The notes below the pieces were generated by a model. The model was not told the DNA's origin. It made no database searches and worked only from the letters and a program-made list of their open reading frames with translations. Positions 1 to 21,247 of a stretch of 21,247 bases of DNA are shown in pieces. The DNA is from a virus (taxonomy: Duplodnaviria; Heunggongvirae; Uroviricota; Caudoviricetes): the IMG/VR virus record IMGVR_UViG_2690316149_000020, positions 1-21,247 of that record; one strand, written 5' to 3'. Made by a program: the position numbers and the translations under genes. Every line of letters begins with the position of its first letter. The first letter of the stretch is position 1.

Positions 1-243
1 ATGGCAGAGATTATTCCCATGACTGAAGAACAGAAATTCCAGTTAGAGATTTACAAACTGGTCATGAACCAGAACGCAGCCGCAGAAGAAGCATTTCAGT
101 TCATTGGCACTGACGAGTTGAAGCTTGAGCTATTCAAAATTCACTTCCAGTCAGGCGGCGCTAATTCAGATATCACGACCCGCACTATCGAAGCGGTGCG
201 TAAATCGAAGGAAGCGTTAGACCTGTTCACCACCGGAGCATGA
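1..243 (+). CDS. hypothetical phage protein (80 aa), function unknown
   Basis: ORF starts with ATG at window position 1 and ends 36 bp upstream of terS on the late-operon strand. No motif recognised. It may be N-terminally truncated by the window edge. Confidence 0.4.
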   Translation: MAEIIPMTEEQKFQLEIYKLVMNQNAAAEEAFQFIGTDELKLELFKIHFQSGGANSDITTRTIEAVRKSKEALDLFTTGA

Positions 244-4423: not shown

Positions 4424-5335
4424 ATGGAACAAACCACCGACATTCAGGCTTCTGAAGAATTAACCCTGCCCGGCAATCATGCAGCGGCATCTGCTGATGG
4501 CTTAGTTGTCGATAATGCCAACGACAACGCAGGTCAGGAAGAAGGCTTTGAGATTGTCCTGAAAGACGATGAGAAACCAAAACAAGACCCGGCAACTAAT
4601 GCTGAATTTGCCCGTCGCCGCATCGAACGCAAACGCCAGCGTGAGCTTGAGCAGCAGATGGAAGCGGTTAAGCGTGGAGAGTTGCCGGAGCACCTGCGGG
4701 TGAACCCTGAGTTACCAAAACAACCAGACCCTAACGATTATCTTTCCGAAGATGCACTGGCTAAGTACGACTATGACCAGAGCCGCGCACTGGCTGCCTT
4801 CCAGCAGGCAAACAGTGAATGGCAGATCAAGGCTATGGACGCACGAAGCCAGGCTGTCGCCGAGCAGGGTCGCAAAACTCAGGAGTTCACCCAGCAATCA
4901 GCGCAATACGTCGAGGCAGCCCGTAAGCACTACGACGCAGCGGAAAAGCTCAATATCCCTGACTATCAGGAGAAAGAGGATGCATTCATGCAACTGGTGC
5001 CGCCAGCAGTCGGTGCCGACATCATGCGACTCTTCCCGGAGAAATCCGCCGCTCTCATGTATCACCTTGGTGCTAATCCTGAGAAAACACGCCAGTTGCT
5101 GGCGATGGACGGGCAATCCGCGCTGATTGAACTCACTCGACTGTCAGAACGTTTAACTCTCAAGCCTCGAGCCAAGCCTGTTTCAGAAGCCCCGCTACCT
5201 GATGAACCCATTCAGGGACACGCTGTTGCTGCAAATATATCTGCGATTGAAAAGCAGATGGAAGCGGCAGCAAACAAAGGGGATGTAGAGACATACCGCA
5301 AGCTCAAGGCGCAACTGAATAAAGGAATTCGATAA
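4424..5335 (+). CDS. scaffolding protein (P22 gp8-like, 303 aa)
   Basis: 303 aa as in P22 gp8, with matching sequence ([17 protein letters not shown]...[20 protein letters not shown]...[11 protein letters not shown]...). Sits between portal and coat. Confidence 0.9.
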
Positions 5336-6630
5336 TGGCATTAAATGAAGGTCAACTGGTCACGTATGCTCTGGATGAAATCATCGAAACCGTCCAGAAC
5401 CTGACGCCAATGGCGTCCAAAGTGACAAAATACACCCCTCCGGCAGAATCCATGCAGCGTTCAAGCAACACCGTGTGGATGCCTGTTGAGCAGGAAGCGC
5501 CAACCCAGACTGGCTGGGATTTAACTGGCAACGCAACCGGGATTCTGGAACTCTCCGTGAAATGCAACATGGGCGATCCGGATAACGATTTCTTCGAGCT
5601 TCGTGCAGATGACCTGCGTGATGAGCGTTCTTACCGTCGCCGCATCCAGGCATCTGCCAAAAAACTGGCGAATAACATTGAGTCAGCGATTGCCAAACAG
5701 GCAACTGAAATGGGCTCACTTGTTGTTCACGATACCCGCGCAATTGGTCCATCTACTGGCCTGTCTGGCTGGGATTTTGTGTCTGATGCAGAGCGCCTGA
5801 TGTTCTCCCGCGAACTCAACCGCGACATGGGCATCAGTTACTTCCTGAACCCTGACGATTACCGCAAAGCAGGCCGCAACCTGGTAGATGGTGACATCTT
5901 CGGTCGCGTTCCTGAAGAAGCGTATCGCAACGGTACTATTCAGCGTCAGATTGCTGGCTTTGATGAAATTCTTCGCTCACCGAAACTTCCGGCAGTTACC
6001 AAGTCAACCGCTACTGGGGTAACTGTTTCTGGTGAGCAGAAGTTTAAGCCGCAGGCATACACCCTTGATACCGATGGTAACAAAGAGAACGTCGACAACC
6101 GTGTTGCAACGGTGACCGTATCCTCCACCACCGGATTTAAGCGCGGCGACAAAATCAGTTTCACTGGTGTGAAATTCCTGTCTCAGATGGCGAAGAACGT
6201 GCTAACTGATGATGCGACTTTCTCAATCACCCGTGTGATCGATGGTACTCACATCGAAATCACGCCGAAGCCGATTGCACTGGATGACGCGTCACTGACA
6301 AAAGAAGAGAAGGCTTACGCTAACGTAAACACCTCTCTTGCTGATATCACTCCGGTAAACGTTCTGAACGTGGCAACAACCACCGCTAACGTGTTCTGGG
6401 CTGATGACTCAATCCGCCTGCTGTCTCAGCCGATCCCGGTAACCCATGAACTGTTTGCTGGCATGAAAACGTCTTCCTTCAGCATTCCTGGTATTGGTGT
6501 TAACGGCATCTTCGCAACGCAGGGTGATATCAACACTCTGTCTGGTAAGTGCCGTATTGCTGTGTGGTATTCAGCATGTGCTGTACGACCAGAGGCAATT
6601 GGTGTTGGTCTGCCTAACCAGACTGCGTGA
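5335..6630 (+). CDS. major coat protein (P22 gp5-like, 431 aa)
   Basis: Translation matches P22 coat across its length ([20 protein letters not shown]...[34 protein letters not shown]...). TAATG stop/start overlap with the scaffold gene. Confidence 0.95.
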
Positions 6631-6636
6631 TAACCA

Positions 6637-6660
6637 GAGGGAGCTTCGGCTCCCTTTTCT
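6637..6660 (+). terminator. candidate intrinsic terminator/attenuator immediately after the coat gene
   Basis: Inverted repeat AGGGAGC-TTCG-GCTCCCT (7-bp stem, TTCG loop) followed by TTTTCT, starting 7 bp after the coat stop. Confidence 0.6.
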
Positions 6661-6673
6661 ATTGGAGATACCA

Positions 6674-7273
6674 ATGAGCGTAATGATTTTTCAGGCTGGC
6701 GGAGATACCAAAATCTGGGGACGCAAGCTGAAAACGAAAACCGTTGATCCTGATGATGTAGCTGTGCACTTAGCAAATGGCTGGTATAAGCACCCTGACG
6801 ATGTTCCTGATGATCCTCTTGTTGGTGATCAAATTGGGAGTGTTGGCGGAGGTGAAACTTCCCCAGTTGATATGGGCGAAGTGTCCGACGGTTATCACAC
6901 TTTTAACGAGCTTTACGCTCACCGAGTGCGACTCTTCTCATCGCTGATGCATGCTTACGCTGAGCTTTCGTGGTGGTCTCGCAAACACAGTGACGGTGAA
7001 GAGTGGGATGGCTGGATCATTGCTGGTATCACCACTCCAGAAGGCGAAATCACTTATCACCTACCTGTTGAAGAAATCGAGTTCCTTCCTGAAGGTACTG
7101 AGCTTGAGTTCGGGAAAGAGTGGGATGGTCATGAAGCAAATGATGTTCTTGGACGACTCCTGAGTTTGCGTCCGGCTATTGCAGAGCCGGAGTCAGAGCC
7201 AGAAGAAAAACAGCGTAAAAAGCCTGGTCGAAAACCTAAGGCGGCAGCAGATGAACCTGACAACGAAGGGTGA
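6674..7273 (+). CDS. hypothetical protein (199 aa) inserted between coat and gp4; acidic body with a basic C-terminal tail
   Basis: ATG at 6674 preceded by GGAGA five nt upstream. The longer 6494 start from the ORF track lies inside the coat gene in another frame and is rejected. No equivalent gene is recalled between genes 5 and 4 in P22. Confidence 0.6.
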
Positions 7274-7751
7274 TTTAGTTCTTGCGGCATTACGTAAGCT
7301 CGGTGTGGCATCAAATGCCACGTTAACCGATGTCGAACCGCAGTCTATGGAAGATGGCGTCAACGACCTTGAAATGATGATGGCTGAATGGCTTGGCGGT
7401 GATGCGTCACCTGGGATCAACGTTGGCTACATTTTCGCTGATGCAGATGTCGCTCCAGATCCGGGCGATGAGCACGGTTTATCAAATAACGCTATCAATG
7501 CCGTCATTTTCAACCTTGCCTGCCGCATTGCTCCGGATTATGCGCTGGAAGCGTCAGCAAAACTTATAACCACTGCCAGATACGGGAAAGAGCGACTCGT
7601 CAAACTGTCTGCAATGGACAGAGCAAAAGCCGCTAAATGTAAGTCCGGTTATCCAAACCGTATGCCTGTTGGTAGCGGTAACCAGTTGGCGAAGTGGAAC
7701 GGTTGGAATTACTTCCACCGAAAGGAACCTTGCGATAACGGGAGCGAATAA
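7251..7751 (+). CDS. head-tail adaptor / portal-closure protein (P22 gp4-like, 166 aa)
   Basis: From the internal ATG at 7251 the translation ([47 protein letters not shown]...) matches P22 gp4 and gives the expected 166 aa. The upstream part of the ORF-track call is the overlap with the preceding gene. Confidence 0.85.
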
Positions 7752-12361: not shown

Positions 12362-14755
12362 ATGGCTAATTACCGTGATTTGTTAGAGCAGGCTGGCGCA
12401 CGTTACGGTGTGCCAGAAGGGTTGATGACTGCACTGGGTGCCAAGGAGTCTTCTTACAACCCTGCCGCAGTAAGCTCCGCCGGGGCTGTAGGATTGACTC
12501 AGGTCATGCCTGGGACATGGCGTGATATGGGTTATACCGATGAGCAAATGCAAAACCCCGAATATCAGGCTGACGCTGGCGCGCGCTATCTGGCAAAGAT
12601 GTACCAGCAGTTTGGTAACTGGCGTGACGCTCTTCAGGCTTATCACGACGGTCCCGGCAACGTTATGAAGGCAAAGCGTGGTGAATATACGCCAGGACCT
12701 GAAGGCCGCGGTTACGTTGATGATCGCTTTGCTCAATGGGCGGGTGACCCGGTGACAGACTCAACAGTCGAACAGCGCGCCACCTCTGCAAAGGTACATC
12801 CTCAGCAAGACCCTAACAACCCGTTTGCACAACTGGAAGCACAGTCATCCGAACAAGTATCGGCATCAGGCGTGCAGTCAGACCCAAATAATCCATTTGC
12901 TCAGATTGAGCAGCAGGCAGCCAGTCAGCAGCCACCTCAACCCGTAAGTTCTGTCGCACCGAAACCTGTTCAGCAGCAAGGCGGAATAATGTCTGACCTT
13001 GGTAATGGACTTGCTGAAACCGGGCGCGGCTTACTACAGGCAGGAATCAACGTAGCGAACATACCTGCTGAACTCACTGATGCTGTAACAAGCGCGGCGG
13101 CTTGGGCTGGCGGTAAACTCGGCATTGGCGATGGTACATATCAACCAGCACCACGAGTAACAACGCAGGGATTAGAGCGGGACTTTGGCCTTCGGCAAGG
13201 CGCGCTGACTCCACAAACGACAGAGGGAAGGGTATTTGCTGAAGCATTGCCTTACCTCACTCCTGCTGGCGTTGAGAGAGCGGCGGTACAGGCACCAACA
13301 CTTGCTGGTCGAATTGCTCAGGGGGCAACACGACTTCTCGCAGAAAACGCAGTTGGATCACTTGCTGCAAATAGTGCGAAAGATGATGCGGAAGCACTCG
13401 CCACCGATTTAGGCGTTGGTGTACTTGCTGGCGGTGCTATTAACGCTGCTGGACGTGGATTAGGTGCTGCTTATCGTGGCGTTCGTGGTGCTATCGCGCC
13501 AGAAGCGCAGCAGGCCATCAGATTTGCAGAGCGTGAAGGAATTCCTCTGCACACCACAGACCTGTTACAACCAACTTCCCGCGTCGGAAAAATGGCGCAG
13601 ACTACAGCAGAAAATATCCCTCTGGCTGGCACAAGCGGAATGAGAGCAACGCAACAGGAAGCGAGAAGCCAGCTGGTGCAGAGATTTGCCGATAAATTCG
13701 GTGAGTATGATCCAGCGGTTGTTATTGACAGCCTTAAAGCGAAAACATCAGGAATTCGTCGTGCCGCCGGTAATCGACTGGAGCAGGTTCAGAATGCTAT
13801 GGCCGGAGTAAACATTCAGCCTGCGCGAGCAATTCAGCAGATTGATACAGAAATATCTAACCTACAGAAGCTTGGTAAGGTTGCTGATAACGAGACTATT
13901 TCAAAACTTCAGTCATATCGTGATGAGCTTATTCGCAATGCTGGCCCTGATGGTCCTGTAAATCTGGATTTGAAGCAATTAAGCGACCTGCGCAGCCAGT
14001 TCAGAATGGACGTGAAGGGTGAGCGACCAGTGTTACCAAACCGTTCCGATGCTGCAATTCAGCGCGTTTACAAGGCAATGACTGACGATATCAATGGTGC
14101 CATTGGTCAGAATCTTGGCAACGATACTCTCCGTAAATATCAGCAGGCCAATGCCGTCTATGCTGACGAAGCAGCGAAACTCAAGAATACCAGGCTGAAG
14201 AATGTTCTCATGAAAGGCGATCTGACGCCAGAAGTTGTCAACAACATGCTATTCAGCAAGAACAAATCGGAAATTAAGACGTTGTATAACTCAGTTGGTC
14301 GTGTTGGCAGGGCGCAAATGCGCAATGGCATCCTTGGAAAGGCGATGGAGAAATCTGGAGGATCCCCTGACCAGTTCCTTCGGCAGCTTAACATCCTGCA
14401 AAACCAGACTGGCATCACATTTAAGGGGCAGGACGCTGCTTATCTGAAAGGATTAAAAAACTATCTGCAATCCACGCAGCAGGCTGCAAAAGCGGCAGTA
14501 ACAACACCAACAGGGCAGCAAACCATCCCGTTCATTATCGGATATGGGACAGCAATGAACCCGGCGACAACTGGCGCAGCAGTAAGCTATGGACTTCTTA
14601 CTCGCGCCTATGAGAGCGAGCCATTCAGAAATGCAATGCTCCGAATGGCAAACACCCCACGCGGATCAACAGCGTTTGAGAAAGCCATGCAGCAAGCACA
14701 AAAGGCAATTAACGCTATGACGCAGGGGGCTAAGTCTGATGCATTGTCAGAATAG
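12362..14755 (+). CDS. ejection protein in the gp16 position with an N-terminal family-1 lytic transglycosylase (SLT) domain (797 aa)
   Basis: Third E-protein position. N-terminal motifs GAKESSYNP (catalytic Glu-Ser), GLTQVMP and AYHDGPGN follow the SLT pattern. Start is TAAATG, directly after gp20. Confidence 0.75.
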   Translation: MANYRDLLEQAGARYGVPEGLMTALGAKESSYNPAAVSSAGAVGLTQVMPGTWRDMGYTDEQMQNPEYQADAGARYLAKMYQQFGNWRDALQAYHDGPGNVMKAKRGEYTPGPEGRGYVDDRFAQWAGDPVTDSTVEQRATSAKVHPQQDPNNPFAQLEAQSSEQVSASGVQSDPNNPFAQIEQQAASQQPPQPVSSVAPKPVQQQGGIMSDLGNGLAETGRGLLQAGINVANIPAELTDAVTSAAAWAGGKLGIGDGTYQPAPRVTTQGLERDFGLRQGALTPQTTEGRVFAEALPYLTPAGVERAAVQAPTLAGRIAQGATRLLAENAVGSLAANSAKDDAEALATDLGVGVLAGGAINAAGRGLGAAYRGVRGAIAPEAQQAIRFAEREGIPLHTTDLLQPTSRVGKMAQTTAENIPLAGTSGMRATQQEARSQLVQRFADKFGEYDPAVVIDSLKAKTSGIRRAAGNRLEQVQNAMAGVNIQPARAIQQIDTEISNLQKLGKVADNETISKLQSYRDELIRNAGPDGPVNLDLKQLSDLRSQFRMDVKGERPVLPNRSDAAIQRVYKAMTDDINGAIGQNLGNDTLRKYQQANAVYADEAAKLKNTRLKNVLMKGDLTPEVVNNMLFSKNKSEIKTLYNSVGRVGRAQMRNGILGKAMEKSGGSPDQFLRQLNILQNQTGITFKGQDAAYLKGLKNYLQSTQQAAKAAVTTPTGQQTIPFIIGYGTAMNPATTGAAVSYGLLTRAYESEPFRNAMLRMANTPRGSTAFEKAMQQAQKAINAMTQGAKSDALSE

Positions 14756-14845: not shown

Positions 14846-15331
14846 TTATCTGATGTTACTGCTACTGTTGCATGTGACTGTATTTCCAAACCCTGAATTG
14901 CAGTTTGTGTAAGTGTCAACTCGTGTTGGATAGGGTTGAGTTATAACAGGCTGTCTCGCTTTTTGCTCGATCGCTTGCATTGTGTTTACAGCCTGATAAT
15001 TCAATAAAGCCTGCTGGAATGCTTGGCTTTGTGCTATTTGTTGGGCTTGTTCTTGGCTTTGTAATTGAACATAAAGATTCTGAAGCTCAAGTCTTGCCTG
15101 TGCGTCACTTATCTTGCCTTCATCGACACTTTGCCCGAGCATCTTTGCAGCAAGGACATACAGCTTAGGTGTTGGTGCTGATGCCATGCGTGAGTCGTTC
15201 TTCACGCTGGCATCAAGGCAATTAGCCATATCGCTAAGCTTTTGATAGCGTTGTTCGCAACTTGCTTGATAGTCACTTACTTTTGCGCACCCAACCAGCA
15301 GAAGCGGGATAATTAACAGTGATTTTTTCAT
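14846..15331 (-). CDS. predicted lipoprotein (161 aa), function unknown; candidate lysogeny-expressed exclusion or conversion factor
   Basis: Internal ATG at 15329-15331 (minus) is preceded by AAGGAG about 10 nt upstream. Signal peptide MKKSLLIIPLLLVGC has lipobox LVGC, and Ala at +2 predicts outer-membrane sorting. Gln-rich mature region with several Cys. The ORF-track start at 15367 lacks an RBS. Confidence 0.65.
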   Translation of the reverse strand: MKKSLLIIPLLLVGCAKVSDYQASCEQRYQKLSDMANCLDASVKNDSRMASAPTPKLYVLAAKMLGQSVDEGKISDAQARLELQNLYVQLQSQEQAQQIAQSQAFQQALLNYQAVNTMQAIEQKARQPVITQPYPTRVDTYTNCNSGFGNTVTCNSSSNIR

Positions 15332-15401
15332 ATGGTTAACTCTCCTTAGTTTTTCACAGGATATCATGAAGGCAATGCCATTTTAGCCGGAAACTAGATT
15401 T

Positions 15402-15668
15402 CTATGTTCCCTTTTTATTATTGCTATACATGGTCTTAAGCGTTTCAAAAACCATTTTCTTAACCATATCAGATTGTTGTTCTGCTATACGCTCTGCATC
15501 GTCAATGTAAACTGATGCAGAGCTTTGTTTAGCCAATGATTCTTCAATCGCTGCAATTATCTCTGAGTTCAGCGACCTGTTATTCATCTTCGCACGCTGC
15601 TTAATTTTCGCGTGGAGTTCATGCGGAAGTCTCAAGTGAAACTGCGCCTCGTCGTATTTGCTGTACAT
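15402..15668 (-). CDS. mnt: Mnt-like ribbon-helix-helix (Arc/MetJ family) repressor (88 aa)
   Basis: C-terminal segment DDAERIAEQQSDMVKKMVFETLKTMY closely resembles the P22 Mnt tetramerisation region. An RHH core (QFHLRLPHELHAKIKQRAKMNNRSLNSEIIAAIEESL) precedes it. Start taken at the internal ATG (15666-15668) to give an Mnt-like length. Confidence 0.8.
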   Translation of the reverse strand: MYSKYDEAQFHLRLPHELHAKIKQRAKMNNRSLNSEIIAAIEESLAKQSSASVYIDDAERIAEQQSDMVKKMVFETLKTMYSNNKKGT

Positions 15669-15741
15669 CCTTGATGCCTCACCAGTTGGGTGGAATGGCA
15701 TCGTAACTTACTGGATAAATACTCAATAGTACCATTTCGGT

Positions 15742-15764
15742 ATGCAATCACATCATGGTTGCAT
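15742..15764. promoter_or_regulatory. inverted repeat ATGCAA-N11-TTGCAT upstream of the mnt-like gene; candidate operator
   Basis: Perfect 6-bp arms at 15742-15747 and 15759-15764 inside the 131-bp gap between the HNH stop and the mnt start. Its role is not established. Confidence 0.25.
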
Positions 15765-15799
15765 CATATCATTCGTCTGGAGCAATGAAATGTCAGATA

Positions 15800-16339
15800 T
15801 CACCTACCATGATTCTCATGATAACCATAGGTCTTTTCAGCCTCACGCCTTACAGCAATTGCATCATCGAGACTCTTAAAGTATCCGAGATTAATGCGCT
15901 TCCCTGCGTCGCTAATATATGCCACCCACTTTTTATGGGTCTTATGCCATGAAACACCTGCGCACCCAGATGTATTGTTTGTGTATTTAGATTTGTTTTT
16001 TAGATTTTCACCGAGACTAACTAGACGCAGGTTGTCTATTGAATTATTTAACCCATTACCATCTTTATGGTCAATTTGCATTCCTGAAGGGATTTCACCA
16101 TAAAACATTTCCCATATTATCCTATGGGCGGCGTATATTTTATCTTGATACCTGATAATTATATAAGATGTTTTCCTGTTCTTGTCCTTGAATATATGTC
16201 CTGCAGGCTTTTCTTTAGATATATTGAACATTTTGGGTCTTGAAAGATATTGGTCACTCCAGTACAGGAGTCCATCGTCTTTTAATACGAATACTTCGTT
16301 CCAGTTCATGTTAACCACCTTTAAATAAAGTTCACTCAT
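15800..16339 (-). CDS. HNH homing-type endonuclease with C-terminal AP2 DNA-binding domain (179 aa; possibly 169 aa from the ATG at 16309)
   Basis: HNH_3 motif [28 protein letters not shown], followed by an AP2-like segment [45 protein letters not shown]. Visibly AT-rich. The alternative start at 16309 has an AAGGTGG Shine-Dalgarno 5 nt upstream. Confidence 0.8.
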
Positions 16340-18845: not shown

Positions 18846-20003
18846 TCACTCCACCTTCCCATCAAGCCATTCCGCCCACCACTGCATCATTTCTCTGCGC
18901 TTATCTAGATACTGAGCATGGTTGTAAATCCCGCGCACAGATCCGCCGTTGGCATGTGCAAGTTGCACTTCAATAGCGTCAGCAGGCCATTCGTGCTCGT
19001 TCATAATCGTGCTGAATTCATGCCTGAATCCGTGACCGCTTTCCAGACCCTCATAGCCGATTTGTTTAATCACAAGTAGCACCGCGTTCTCGCAGATTGG
19101 CTTCTTCTTATCGTTGCGTCCGGCAAAAACAAACTCTGATACTGGCTTGGTGATTGAGCTTAGCGTAGTAAGAAGTTCAACCACCTGGTCTGACATCGGG
19201 ACCACATGAATTTTTCGACCCTTCATCACACTGGCGTCGATGGTGATAATCCTGTTTTCAAAATCGACGTTCTTCCATAGCATGGAACGAAGTTCTTTCG
19301 TTCTTAGGGCGGTGTAGCGTAAAACTTTAGTCGCAATAAGCGATACGATACTTCCTGAAAATGTTGCCAGTGCTTTGTTGAATGCCGGGATCTGGTCTGC
19401 AGGAAGAAACGGGAAGTTCTTCTTGCGGTATCCTTTCATGGCGTCTGCAAGGTCAGGTGCCGGGTTATATTTAGCCCTTCCGGTGACAATAGCGTAACGG
19501 AAAACCTCGCCGCATCTTCTGCGTGCTTTGTTGGCTCGCTCCATTGCACCGCGATCTTCAAATCTGCGGATTACTTCCAGCAGTTGCATCGGCTCAATAT
19601 CCTGAATCTCAAGACCGCCGATGATGGGTAAAATGTCGTCATCAAACATTTTTGCAAGTTCAGTCGCATACCCTACTGACCAGACTTGCTTCTTGTGCTC
19701 GTACCATTCCTTGTAAATCGCACTAAATGAATTGTTGTTAGACGAAGCCTTTTTCGCCTTTACCGGATCGATGCCAACCGAGATGTCTTTCCTCGCGGTC
19801 CATGCTTTATCCCTTGCTTCCTGCAAAGTCATAAGCGGATATTTTCCGACGGTCAGGATTTTCTCCTTACCGTCAATCTTGTAGCGAAGCTGCCATACCT
19901 TTTTCCCGGATACAGGGACATAAAGGTACAGGCCATTACCATCGAGAAGGCGGTATGGTTTTTCTTTCGGCTTTGCTGCTTCAATCTGCTTAACGGTGAG
20001 CAT
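18846..20003 (-). CDS. intS: tyrosine recombinase / phage integrase, IntS-like (385 aa from the ATG; the ORF-track GTG start at 20039 would give 397 aa)
   Basis: Sits directly beside the 3' end of argW and is transcribed away from it. C-terminal catalytic-domain residues are visible (...HGFRHEF...HANGGSVRGIYNH...). Sequence and context match the recalled argW-associated IntS family. Confidence 0.85.
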   Translation of the reverse strand: MLTVKQIEAAKPKEKPYRLLDGNGLYLYVPVSGKKVWQLRYKIDGKEKILTVGKYPLMTLQEARDKAWTARKDISVGIDPVKAKKASSNNNSFSAIYKEWYEHKKQVWSVGYATELAKMFDDDILPIIGGLEIQDIEPMQLLEVIRRFEDRGAMERANKARRRCGEVFRYAIVTGRAKYNPAPDLADAMKGYRKKNFPFLPADQIPAFNKALATFSGSIVSLIATKVLRYTALRTKELRSMLWKNVDFENRIITIDASVMKGRKIHVVPMSDQVVELLTTLSSITKPVSEFVFAGRNDKKKPICENAVLLVIKQIGYEGLESGHGFRHEFSTIMNEHEWPADAIEVQLAHANGGSVRGIYNHAQYLDKRREMMQWWAEWLDGKVE

Positions 20004-20080
20004 GGGTAAAAATCCGGTGGGTAAAATTATTTTATCCACTTTTTACCCGTCATGGTGTGCGGCTGTCAACGATCTGACGC

Positions 20081-20164: not shown

Positions 20165-20239
20165 TGGTGTCCCCTGCAGGAATCGAACCTGCAATTAGCC
20201 CTTAGGAGGGGCTCGTTATATCCATTTAACTAAGAGGAC
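20165..20239 (-). tRNA. argW: tRNA-Arg (anticodon CCU), argW; prophage attachment target
   Basis: The reverse complement reads GTCCTCTTAGTTAAATGGATATAACGAGCCCCTCCTAAGGGCTAATTGCAGGTTCGATTCCTGCAGGGGACACCA. It has a 7-bp acceptor stem, anticodon loop CTCCTAA with CCT, a T-arm GGTTCGATTCC and a 3' CCA. 75 nt. Confidence 0.9.
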
Positions 20240-20314: not shown

Positions 20315-21247
20315 TTATGCTGGGTTTTTATCATTTTTCTTAATGTTTTCCGCACGTTCTGCTTTTTGGCGTGCTTCTGCTTTACGCTTGTTGCTCATGT
20401 CGTTACGAATCTGTGCATGACTCATTAACGCGAAGATAAAGGTGCCGCCGCAGATGTTCCCCGCTAAAGTAGGTAGTGCGAAGGGCCAGATGAAATCGCT
20501 CCAGTGCAGCGTGCCGTTAAACACCAGATAGAGGATTTCAACAGAACCGACAACGATGTGGGTGGTGTCACCCAGTGCAATAAGCCAGGTCATCAATATA
20601 ATCACCACAATCTTTGCCGCACCCGCAGCAGGAAACATCCAAACCATAGTGGCGATCAGCCAGCCGGAAATGATCGCGTTGGCAAACATCTCGCTGGGGG
20701 TGTTCTTCATCACATCCATGCCGATTTTGACAAATGCATCGCGAGTTTCTTCATTGAAGATAGGCATATATTCAAATGCCCATGCAGCAATACCTGTCCC
20801 GAGAATATTACCCAGCAGCACGACGCCCCATAATCGCATAAGTAAGCCGACGTTGCTCATTGTCGGTTTTTGCATGACGGGTAGTACCGCAGTCACGGTG
20901 TTTTCGGTAAATAATTGCTGGCGGGCCATAATGACGATAATAAAACCAAAGGTATAACCGAGATTCTCCAGTAAGAAGCTGCCTGGCACTCCTTCCAGTT
21001 CGACATGAAATATCCCTTTTGCCAGTAGCGAAGCGCCCATCGACAGACCCGCCGCAATGGCTGACCACAGTAGCGCCATTGCGTCGCGTTCCAGCTCTTT
21101 TTCACCATCCTGGCGGATATGCTCATGAATTGCCATCGCCCGGGAGGGGAGTCGGTCTTCATCTATTTCTATTTTTTTGCCGCGCTCTTTTTCTTCGCTC
21201 TCAACTTCAATTTCGTCGCTGTGTTGATCAATTTTGTCGTTGTCCAT
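20315..21247 (-). CDS. yfdC: inner-membrane protein of the formate/nitrite transporter (FNT) family, YfdC-like (310 aa); host gene flanking the prophage
   Basis: Full-length ORF whose start codon is the last triplet of the window. Acidic N-terminal tail followed by multiple hydrophobic helices. It is the expected host neighbour of argW in enterobacterial genomes. Confidence 0.8.
   Translation of the reverse strand: MDNDKIDQHSDEIEVESEEKERGKKIEIDEDRLPSRAMAIHEHIRQDGEKELERDAMALLWSAIAAGLSMGASLLAKGIFHVELEGVPGSFLLENLGYTFGFIIVIMARQQLFTENTVTAVLPVMQKPTMSNVGLLMRLWGVVLLGNILGTGIAAWAFEYMPIFNEETRDAFVKIGMDVMKNTPSEMFANAIISGWLIATMVWMFPAAGAAKIVVIILMTWLIALGDTTHIVVGSVEILYLVFNGTLHWSDFIWPFALPTLAGNICGGTFIFALMSHAQIRNDMSNKRKAEARQKAERAENIKKNDKNPA

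Follow-up and report, generated by a model that had tools for sequence, protein, structure and literature searches.

A WDGH-domain protein encoded between the coat and gp4 genes of an E. coli P22-like prophage, a candidate counter-defence accessory protein

Gene organization of the late region

The window, which is the whole 21,247-nt stretch of DNA that was analysed, is the late region and the right end of an E. coli P22-like prophage. The small and large terminase, portal, scaffold, and coat genes were encoded in the window. They were followed by the slot, the term used here for the position between the coat and gp4 genes, and downstream of it by gp4 and gp10 homologues, genes at the needle and ejection positions, and the tailspike gene. 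An integrase gene (18846–20039, minus strand), a tRNA-Arg(CCT) gene (20165–20239), and a host transporter gene of the formate/nitrite-transporter family (20315–21247) were located at the end of the window, which indicates that the element is a P22-like prophage integrated at the tRNA-Arg site. When the whole window was compared with Rfam, the tRNA was the sole match.

Several other genes of the window were also assigned. An 80-aa DUF2560 protein (PF10834, 1.1e-43) was encoded at window 1–243, immediately before the small terminase gene. The product of the gene at the gp16 (ejection protein) position (12362–14755) was composed of 797 residues and had an SLT lytic transglycosylase domain (PF01464, 2.9e-25) at its N terminus, whereas gene 16 of P22 (11484–13313) encodes a protein of about 609 residues. 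The variable region in front of the tailspike gene, at the 'ant moron' position (14846–16339, minus strand), contained three ORFs, which encoded a 173-aa protein without a Pfam match, an Arc/Mnt-like repressor (15402–15701), and an endonuclease-like protein with HNH_3 and AP2 domains (15800–16339).

The slot contained an ORF with an ATG at 6674 and a stop codon at 7271–7273, and its 3′ end overlapped the gp4 start (ATG 7251) by 23 nt. A GGAGA Shine-Dalgarno sequence preceded the ATG, and a GGAG or GAGG motif was found upstream of the slot gene in most aligned relatives. The encoded protein was acidic, with a pI of 4.65 and 40 Asp and Glu residues against 20 Lys and Arg residues. An earlier interpretation made from the letters of this DNA (the sequence-only reading) had described the 199-aa ORF with its Shine-Dalgarno sequence and its gp4 overlap, as well as the acidic protein and its motifs, and all of these were present. 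The slot protein shared 97% identity with an E. coli cluster of 1929 sequences, and E. coli DNA copies with 98–99% identity carried the RefSeq name 'WDGH domain-containing protein'. The features of the coat–gp4 junction are listed in Table 1.

Table 1. Coordinates of the features at the coat–gp4 junction and the evidence for each.
Feature	Position	Strand	Evidence
P22-type major coat protein gene, 431 aa, upstream neighbour	5335–6630	+	PF11651 P22_CoatProtein, E = 2.6e-164
Conserved stem-loop 3′ of the coat gene, stem and U-rich run UUUUCUAUU	6636–6663	+	Fold energy, conservation, P22 annotation
Shine-Dalgarno sequence GGAGA of the slot gene, 5 nt before the ATG	6664–6668	+	Sequence reading
Slot gene, long allele, 199-aa WDGH-domain protein	6674–7273	+	Translation; phrog_3769 full length, 1.2e-100
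N-terminal domain of about 45 aa, common to short alleles (P22 orf69 family, phrog_1175)	6674–6808	+	phrog_1175 aa 1–44, 2.4e-14
WDGH domain, aa 68–165	6875–7168	+	Pfam PF25311, E = 1.4e-39
Glu-Pro type repeat linker, here EPESEPEE; right cassette edge	7186–7209	+	Length polymorphism; Bas106 similarity break
Conserved basic tail over the gp4 ribosome-binding region and gp4 start overlap	7210–7273	+	Identical in E. coli short and long alleles
gp4 (head-tail adaptor) homologue, downstream neighbour	7251–7751	+	PF11650 P22_Tail-4, E = 1.1e-58

No promoter-like site was detected between 5449 and 8077 in a promoter scan, and the slot gene is part of the late operon. A moron, which would have its own promoter and terminator, was rejected as a description of the gene: there was no promoter-like site, the upstream hairpin was that of the coat gene, and the end of the ORF overlapped gp4. 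A foreign insertion was rejected on composition, with a GC content of 0.49 in the ORF and 0.49–0.51 in its neighbours.

Stem-loop at the 3′ end of the coat gene

The coat gene ended with the tandem stop codons TGA TAA (TGA 6628–6630; pair 6628–6633), and a hairpin followed immediately. The core of the hairpin was formed by GGGAGC (6639–6644), the loop TTCG (6645–6648), and GCTCCC (6649–6654), followed by TTTTCTATT, and the stem was extendable to nine pairs (6636–6657). The hairpin region folded with an energy of −19.2 kcal/mol, corresponding to a z value of −2.5 against shuffled sequences. In its shape, the hairpin resembles an intrinsic (Rho-independent) terminator, with six pairs, of which five were G-C, a UUCG loop, and UUUUCUAUU. 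It was not listed by a simple consensus terminator scan, which we attribute to the ability of the stem to extend into the T-run.

A GC stem, a UUCG loop, and a U-run followed the coat stop codon in all nine P22-like loci compared, which came from E. coli, Salmonella, Xenorhabdus, Pantoea, Serratia, and two metagenomic contigs. The stems were of the GGGGC/GCCCC type, the U-runs were 4–7 nt long, and the loop was UGCG in P22. RNAalifold gave six consensus pairs, two of which showed compensatory AU/GC exchanges and one a G-U variant; at one position the stem of the window pairs A with U and that of P22 pairs G with C, and at another the exchange is reversed. The GC-rich tetraloop hairpin with a T-run that the sequence-only reading had placed before the ORF was thus borne out by its z value, its conservation in the nine loci, and its covariation. 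The corresponding stem-loop is annotated in the P22 record NC_002371 (6102–6119) as 'similar in location to stem-loops in phage HK97 and phage lambda', and the window resembles all three phages in having a GC-rich hairpin immediately 3′ of the coat stop codon that is conserved in relatives.

The hairpin was present with either a short or a long allele in the slot and, as judged from sequence comparison, is an element of the 3′ end of the coat gene, not of the slot gene. Late transcription is antiterminated in lambdoid and P22-type phages. For this reason, a stabilizer of the mRNA 3′ end or a partial attenuator, to the benefit of the coat message, seems likelier for the hairpin. It would probably protect or attenuate the 3′ end of the coat message and thereby help to set the ratio of coat to downstream expression.

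The slot gene in P22-like phages

The sequence-only reading had regarded the ORF as an extra gene, with gene 4 of P22 directly following gene 5. This gene order was wrong. In NC_002371, orf69 (6135–6344) is located between gene 5 (4804–6096) and gene 4 (6328–6828). The P22 orf69 product aligned with the slot protein in BLASTP at residues 1–41 (E = 2e-08) and at the tail (E = 0.008), and both proteins matched phrog_1175; a homologous gene in P22, which the sequence-only reading had itself named as evidence against it, therefore exists. By sequence, the window exceeds P22 in the internal WDGH module; the gene itself is common to both.

The slot was filled in every P22-like genome examined, P22 included, and a comparison of the coat–gp4 junction in related P22-like genomes gave a short or a long slot gene in each, so that the supposed unusual insertion into the head-gene block is a regular feature, whose long form is found in the literature. 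In tblastn searches, the long form was found at the same position, with about 62% identity, in ST64T (orf-186), L (Orf186), ST104 (ORF54), epsilon34 and g341c (gene 6), SE1, BTP1, and others. The ORF of the window is thus the long allele of the slot gene known as orf186 in ST64T and L, ORF54 in ST104, and gene 6 in epsilon34. Existing annotations of P22-like phage genomes and RefSeq already cover the slot gene, its position, and the hairpin; what had been observed is genuine but commonplace. In the genome paper of phage L, orf186 was described with 'detailed function unknown' and as breaking the head/head-completion synteny with P22 (PMC8022706).

The long alleles of Salmonella phages (epsilon34 gene 6, ST64T/L orf186, and ST104 ORF54) shared with the window protein the phrog_3769 match and the order of N-terminal domain, WDGH domain, linker, and basic tail, and their identity of about 62% extended over residues 1–167. 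The window protein, an E. coli-lineage variant, differs from them in its length (199 against 186 aa), in a longer acidic linker after the N-terminal domain, and in the end of its tail (DEPDNEG against DADKD). The order portal-scaffold-coat-WDGH-gp4-gp10 was also kept in all five further loci, from Xenorhabdus, Pantoea, Serratia, and two metagenome-derived contigs, where a gap of 40–46 nt was found 3′ of the coat gene and the gp4 overlap was 17–23 nt.

Domain structure of the slot protein

The AlphaFold2 model of the monomer, calculated from a 73-sequence alignment, was confident, with a mean pLDDT of 84.5, and was composed of two folded parts. The N-terminal domain (residues 1–45) formed a β-hairpin and a helix with pLDDT values mostly of 83–95. 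Residues Gly9, Gly36, Trp37, and Pro41 of this domain were invariant across genera in a dedicated alignment, and a profile search with it gave hundreds of Enterobacterales proteins of 63–84 aa. The acidic linker that followed (residues 49–60) had pLDDT values below 50, and the unfolded stretch extended to about residue 65.

The WDGH domain (residues 66–165 in the model) consisted of a long helix, a three-stranded sheet, and two short helices, with pLDDT values of 90–98. It matched positions 1–97 of the 97 positions of the PF25311 model with 134.8 bits, against a cut-off of 27, and belongs to this family. The family comprised 4536 clusters at 50% identity in a profile search of 1.8 billion representatives. 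Residues Asp72, Tyr81, Arg84, Gly118, and Tyr128 were invariant across 131 diverse members. Residues Ser71, Gly73, His75, Thr76, Phe77, Glu79, Leu80, His83, Leu87, Phe88, Trp100, and His105, and further Asp107, Gly108, Gly113, Gly124, His129, Pro131, Trp150, Asp151, Gly152, His153, Val158, and Arg161 were conserved in at least 90% of these members. The window protein has all family residues tested, namely the five invariant residues together with His75, His83, His105, Asp107, His129, and Trp150-Asp151-Gly152-His153, each of which was invariant or at least 90% conserved in both the 73- and the 131-member alignments. About 15 polar and aromatic residues were invariant or nearly invariant in the 131 members, which shared 30–60% identity. 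That His, Asp, Arg, Tyr, and Trp are fixed at so many positions within 100 residues suggests a pocket for ligand binding or catalysis. The histidine motifs were also considered as those of a 2H-phosphoesterase, but this was rejected, as HTF and HLP do not fit the H-x-T/S-x pattern.

WDGH was the sole Pfam match of the slot protein, and neither Tad2 (PF11195) nor Sequestin (PF21825) was matched. NCBIfam and PADLOC, neither of which is an anti-defence library, gave no matches. A sequence search of the PDB with the slot protein gave nothing below E = 0.7. In Foldseek, which the sequence-only reading had suggested as a check, no PDB match with E < 1 was obtained, so the fold of the model resembles no solved structure and gave no hint of an activity. 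In the viral structure library BFVD, the only matches were other uncharacterised WDGH proteins, with Foldseek E values down to 4e-15.

PF25311 proteins were also found in Klebsiella phages LASTA and SopranoGao, Erwinia phage Pavtok, Bacillus phage Tsamsa, and Listeria, Lactococcus, and Streptococcus phages. These proteins share the domain of about 100 aa and its invariant residues with the window protein; they differ from it in being encoded outside the head cluster, in having other or no flanking domains, and in the absence of the orf69-type N-terminal domain and tail. In SopranoGao, Pavtok, and Tsamsa, the WDGH genes were located among small early or accessory genes, outside the structural modules.

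The tail of the slot protein contained a basic patch resembling K(K/R)xG(R/P)KxK, which was found in 29 of 52 homologues and reads KKPGRKPK in the window protein. An AT-hook motif, with an R-G-R-P core flanked by basic residues, was rejected for this tail, as it contains GRKP without RGRP, and RGRP occurred in only two of the 52 homologue tails. The AT-hook-like motif of the sequence-only reading came down to a weak resemblance, and DNA binding by the basic patch is possible but unsupported. The patch, the canonical RGRP core of the two homologues, and the presence of the tail in short and long alleles would fit a nucleic-acid-binding or regulatory protein, whose AT-hook-like tail would bind DNA or RNA while the N-terminal and WDGH domains act on a nucleic acid or a host factor. 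Such a protein seems unlikely here: the tail has GRKP instead of RGRP, the slot protein is strongly acidic, and no DNA-binding family was matched in the Pfam and NCBIfam/PADLOC searches. Furthermore, the tail DNA also carries the ribosome-binding site and the start of gp4, so that the conservation of the tail may lie partly at the nucleic-acid level.

Short and long alleles of the slot gene

The alleles were counted in 80 IMG/VR loci whose gp4 was 98–100% identical to that of the window. The short allele (74–104 aa) was present in 64 loci and the full long allele (195–201 aa) in 11, which together gave 75 complete loci; one further long allele was cut by the contig end and four loci were cut before the slot. 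Among 5426 complete E. coli genomes, the junction was present in 217, and 42 of these contained the long form with 98–99% identity. The nearest sequenced phages, including IME10, HZ41, APC_JM3.2, and Bas106, had flanks of about 97.8% identity and a slot ORF of only 76–88 aa.

P22 orf69 and the short alleles of IME10, HZ41, Bas106, and APC_JM3.2 share with the window the slot, the hairpin, the Shine-Dalgarno sequence, and the overlap with gene 4, as well as a homologous N-terminal domain and basic tail. Unlike the window protein, they wholly lack the WDGH domain. The similarity of the window to the short-allele phages stopped just after the Shine-Dalgarno sequence (~6668) and returned within the Glu-Pro repeat (~7179–7194; Bas106), which indicates an exchangeable cassette of roughly 6669–7190. 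The GC content of the cassette was 0.49 and matched that of its flanks. The Glu-Pro repeat, with a hexanucleotide unit, varied from one to at least 15 dipeptides among the 75 close loci and was in frame in all of them; it was much longer and more variable in the E. coli short alleles than in the window. In phage APC_JM3.2, the repeat carries a repeat_region annotation.

A cassette that can be replaced, with its edges at the Shine-Dalgarno sequence and in the Glu-Pro repeat, might have no important protein function, its translation serving to carry ribosomes from the hairpin into the gp4 start by translational coupling. This would be consistent with the overlap of 17–23 nt with gp4 in all loci examined and with the P22 homologue, which was reported to be internally deleted and non-essential (Villafane 2008, PMC2629481). 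The conservation at the protein level makes translational coupling alone very improbable: the WDGH domain was matched with E = 1.4e-39 and has invariant residues in members of 30–60% identity, four residues of the N-terminal domain were invariant across genera, and no frameshifted or truncated copy of the slot gene was found among the 75 complete close loci.

The sequence-only reading had proposed a virion accessory protein. In a related possibility, the slot protein would either assist morphogenesis, as the head is completed around the portal and gp4, or be a minor component that is packaged in the capsid and ejected with the DNA. The conserved position between coat and gp4 across genera, the overlapped gp4 start, the late-operon location without a promoter-like site of its own, and a basic tail that could bind DNA are in line with this possibility. 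However, the WDGH module was present or absent between prophages with gp4 98–100% and coat about 98% identical, which fits an accessory, conflict-related gene and speaks against the protein being required for head assembly. The reported dispensability of the P22 homologue (PMC2629481), the early or accessory location of WDGH genes elsewhere, outside structural modules, and the lack of any sequence or fold resemblance to structural proteins in Foldseek searches of the PDB and BFVD also argue against a helper or packaged protein, which was considered quite unlikely; the virion proposal found no support. The slot protein would instead be a dispensable, non-structural accessory protein.

Putative counter-defence role of the WDGH domain

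A literature search for 'WDGH' gave unrelated matches only, and no paper assigning a function was found. The domain was, however, fused to other small domains in several relatives. One protein (P0102) was a fusion of a Tad2-like domain, WDGH, and Sequestin, and three others (P0077, P0082, and P0108) were fusions of WDGH and Sequestin. Among the 131 WDGH representatives, three more fusions with Sequestin, two with Lar_restr_allev, and one with DUF551 were found.

Tad2 is a sponge for the Thoeris signal. Sequestin (PF21825) sequesters 3′cADPR, and its own discovery came from fusions to known sponges (bioRxiv 10.1101/2025.07.12.664507). By the same reasoning, the fusion of WDGH to known sponges makes it a reasonable counter-defence candidate. 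Like WDGH proteins, Tad2 and Sequestin are small phage or prophage proteins, and they were fused to or adjoined WDGH in several relatives; the window protein contains neither domain and resembles them neither in sequence nor in fold. WDGH was absent from the main text and supplements of the preprint on Sequestin, Lockin, and Acb5 (bioRxiv 10.1101/2025.07.12.664507), and an identification of WDGH as Lockin or Acb5 was rejected, since neither fits by size or distribution. P22 was not mentioned in a machine-learning anti-defence preprint.

The triple fusion (L009:5001–5798) was encoded in the late region of a P22-like prophage of Serratia, with the lysis genes on one side and the terminase and portal genes on the other. 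In a phage contig (L094:4071–5870), a Tad2-like gene was located directly upstream of a WDGH and Sequestin gene. Both gene groups look like small anti-defence clusters.

A counter-defence role is our best guess for the WDGH domain, based on weak hints from the sequences. In the proposed mechanism, WDGH would most likely be a counter-defence module. By analogy with Tad2 and Sequestin, its invariant residues would make up a pocket for binding or cleaving a small ligand, which is probably a nucleotide immune signal. The part of the sequence-only reading that proposed an anti-defence factor is indirectly supported by the Tad2-like, Sequestin, and Lar-like fusions, whereas the early delivery it proposed is pure speculation for a late-operon gene.

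Several points speak against the counter-defence role. The sponge fusions were rare, occurring in a few per cent of the members, and could reflect any anti-host function, and expression from the late operon is an atypical timing for a counter-defence protein. In addition, the short allele keeps the conserved N-terminal domain and tail without WDGH, which indicates that the gene has some function that counter-defence leaves unexplained. The whole reading, namely a dispensable, non-structural accessory protein in the slot, a counter-defence module in its WDGH domain, and a hairpin acting on the coat message, was given a probability of about 0.45. The wider proposal is doubtful by comparison: WDGH may be an unrecognised, very widespread counter-defence family that binds or cleaves a nucleotide immune signal, and P22-like phages would express it late, next to the coat gene, in time for defences set off by late or structural proteins, with the short and long alleles as an arms-race polymorphism.

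WDGH provides a testable lead, as its family in phages and prophages is large (about 4,500 clusters at 50% identity) and repeatedly fused to validated sponges. Near-isogenic prophages with the long or the short allele exist naturally and are suited for testing WDGH against bacterial defence.
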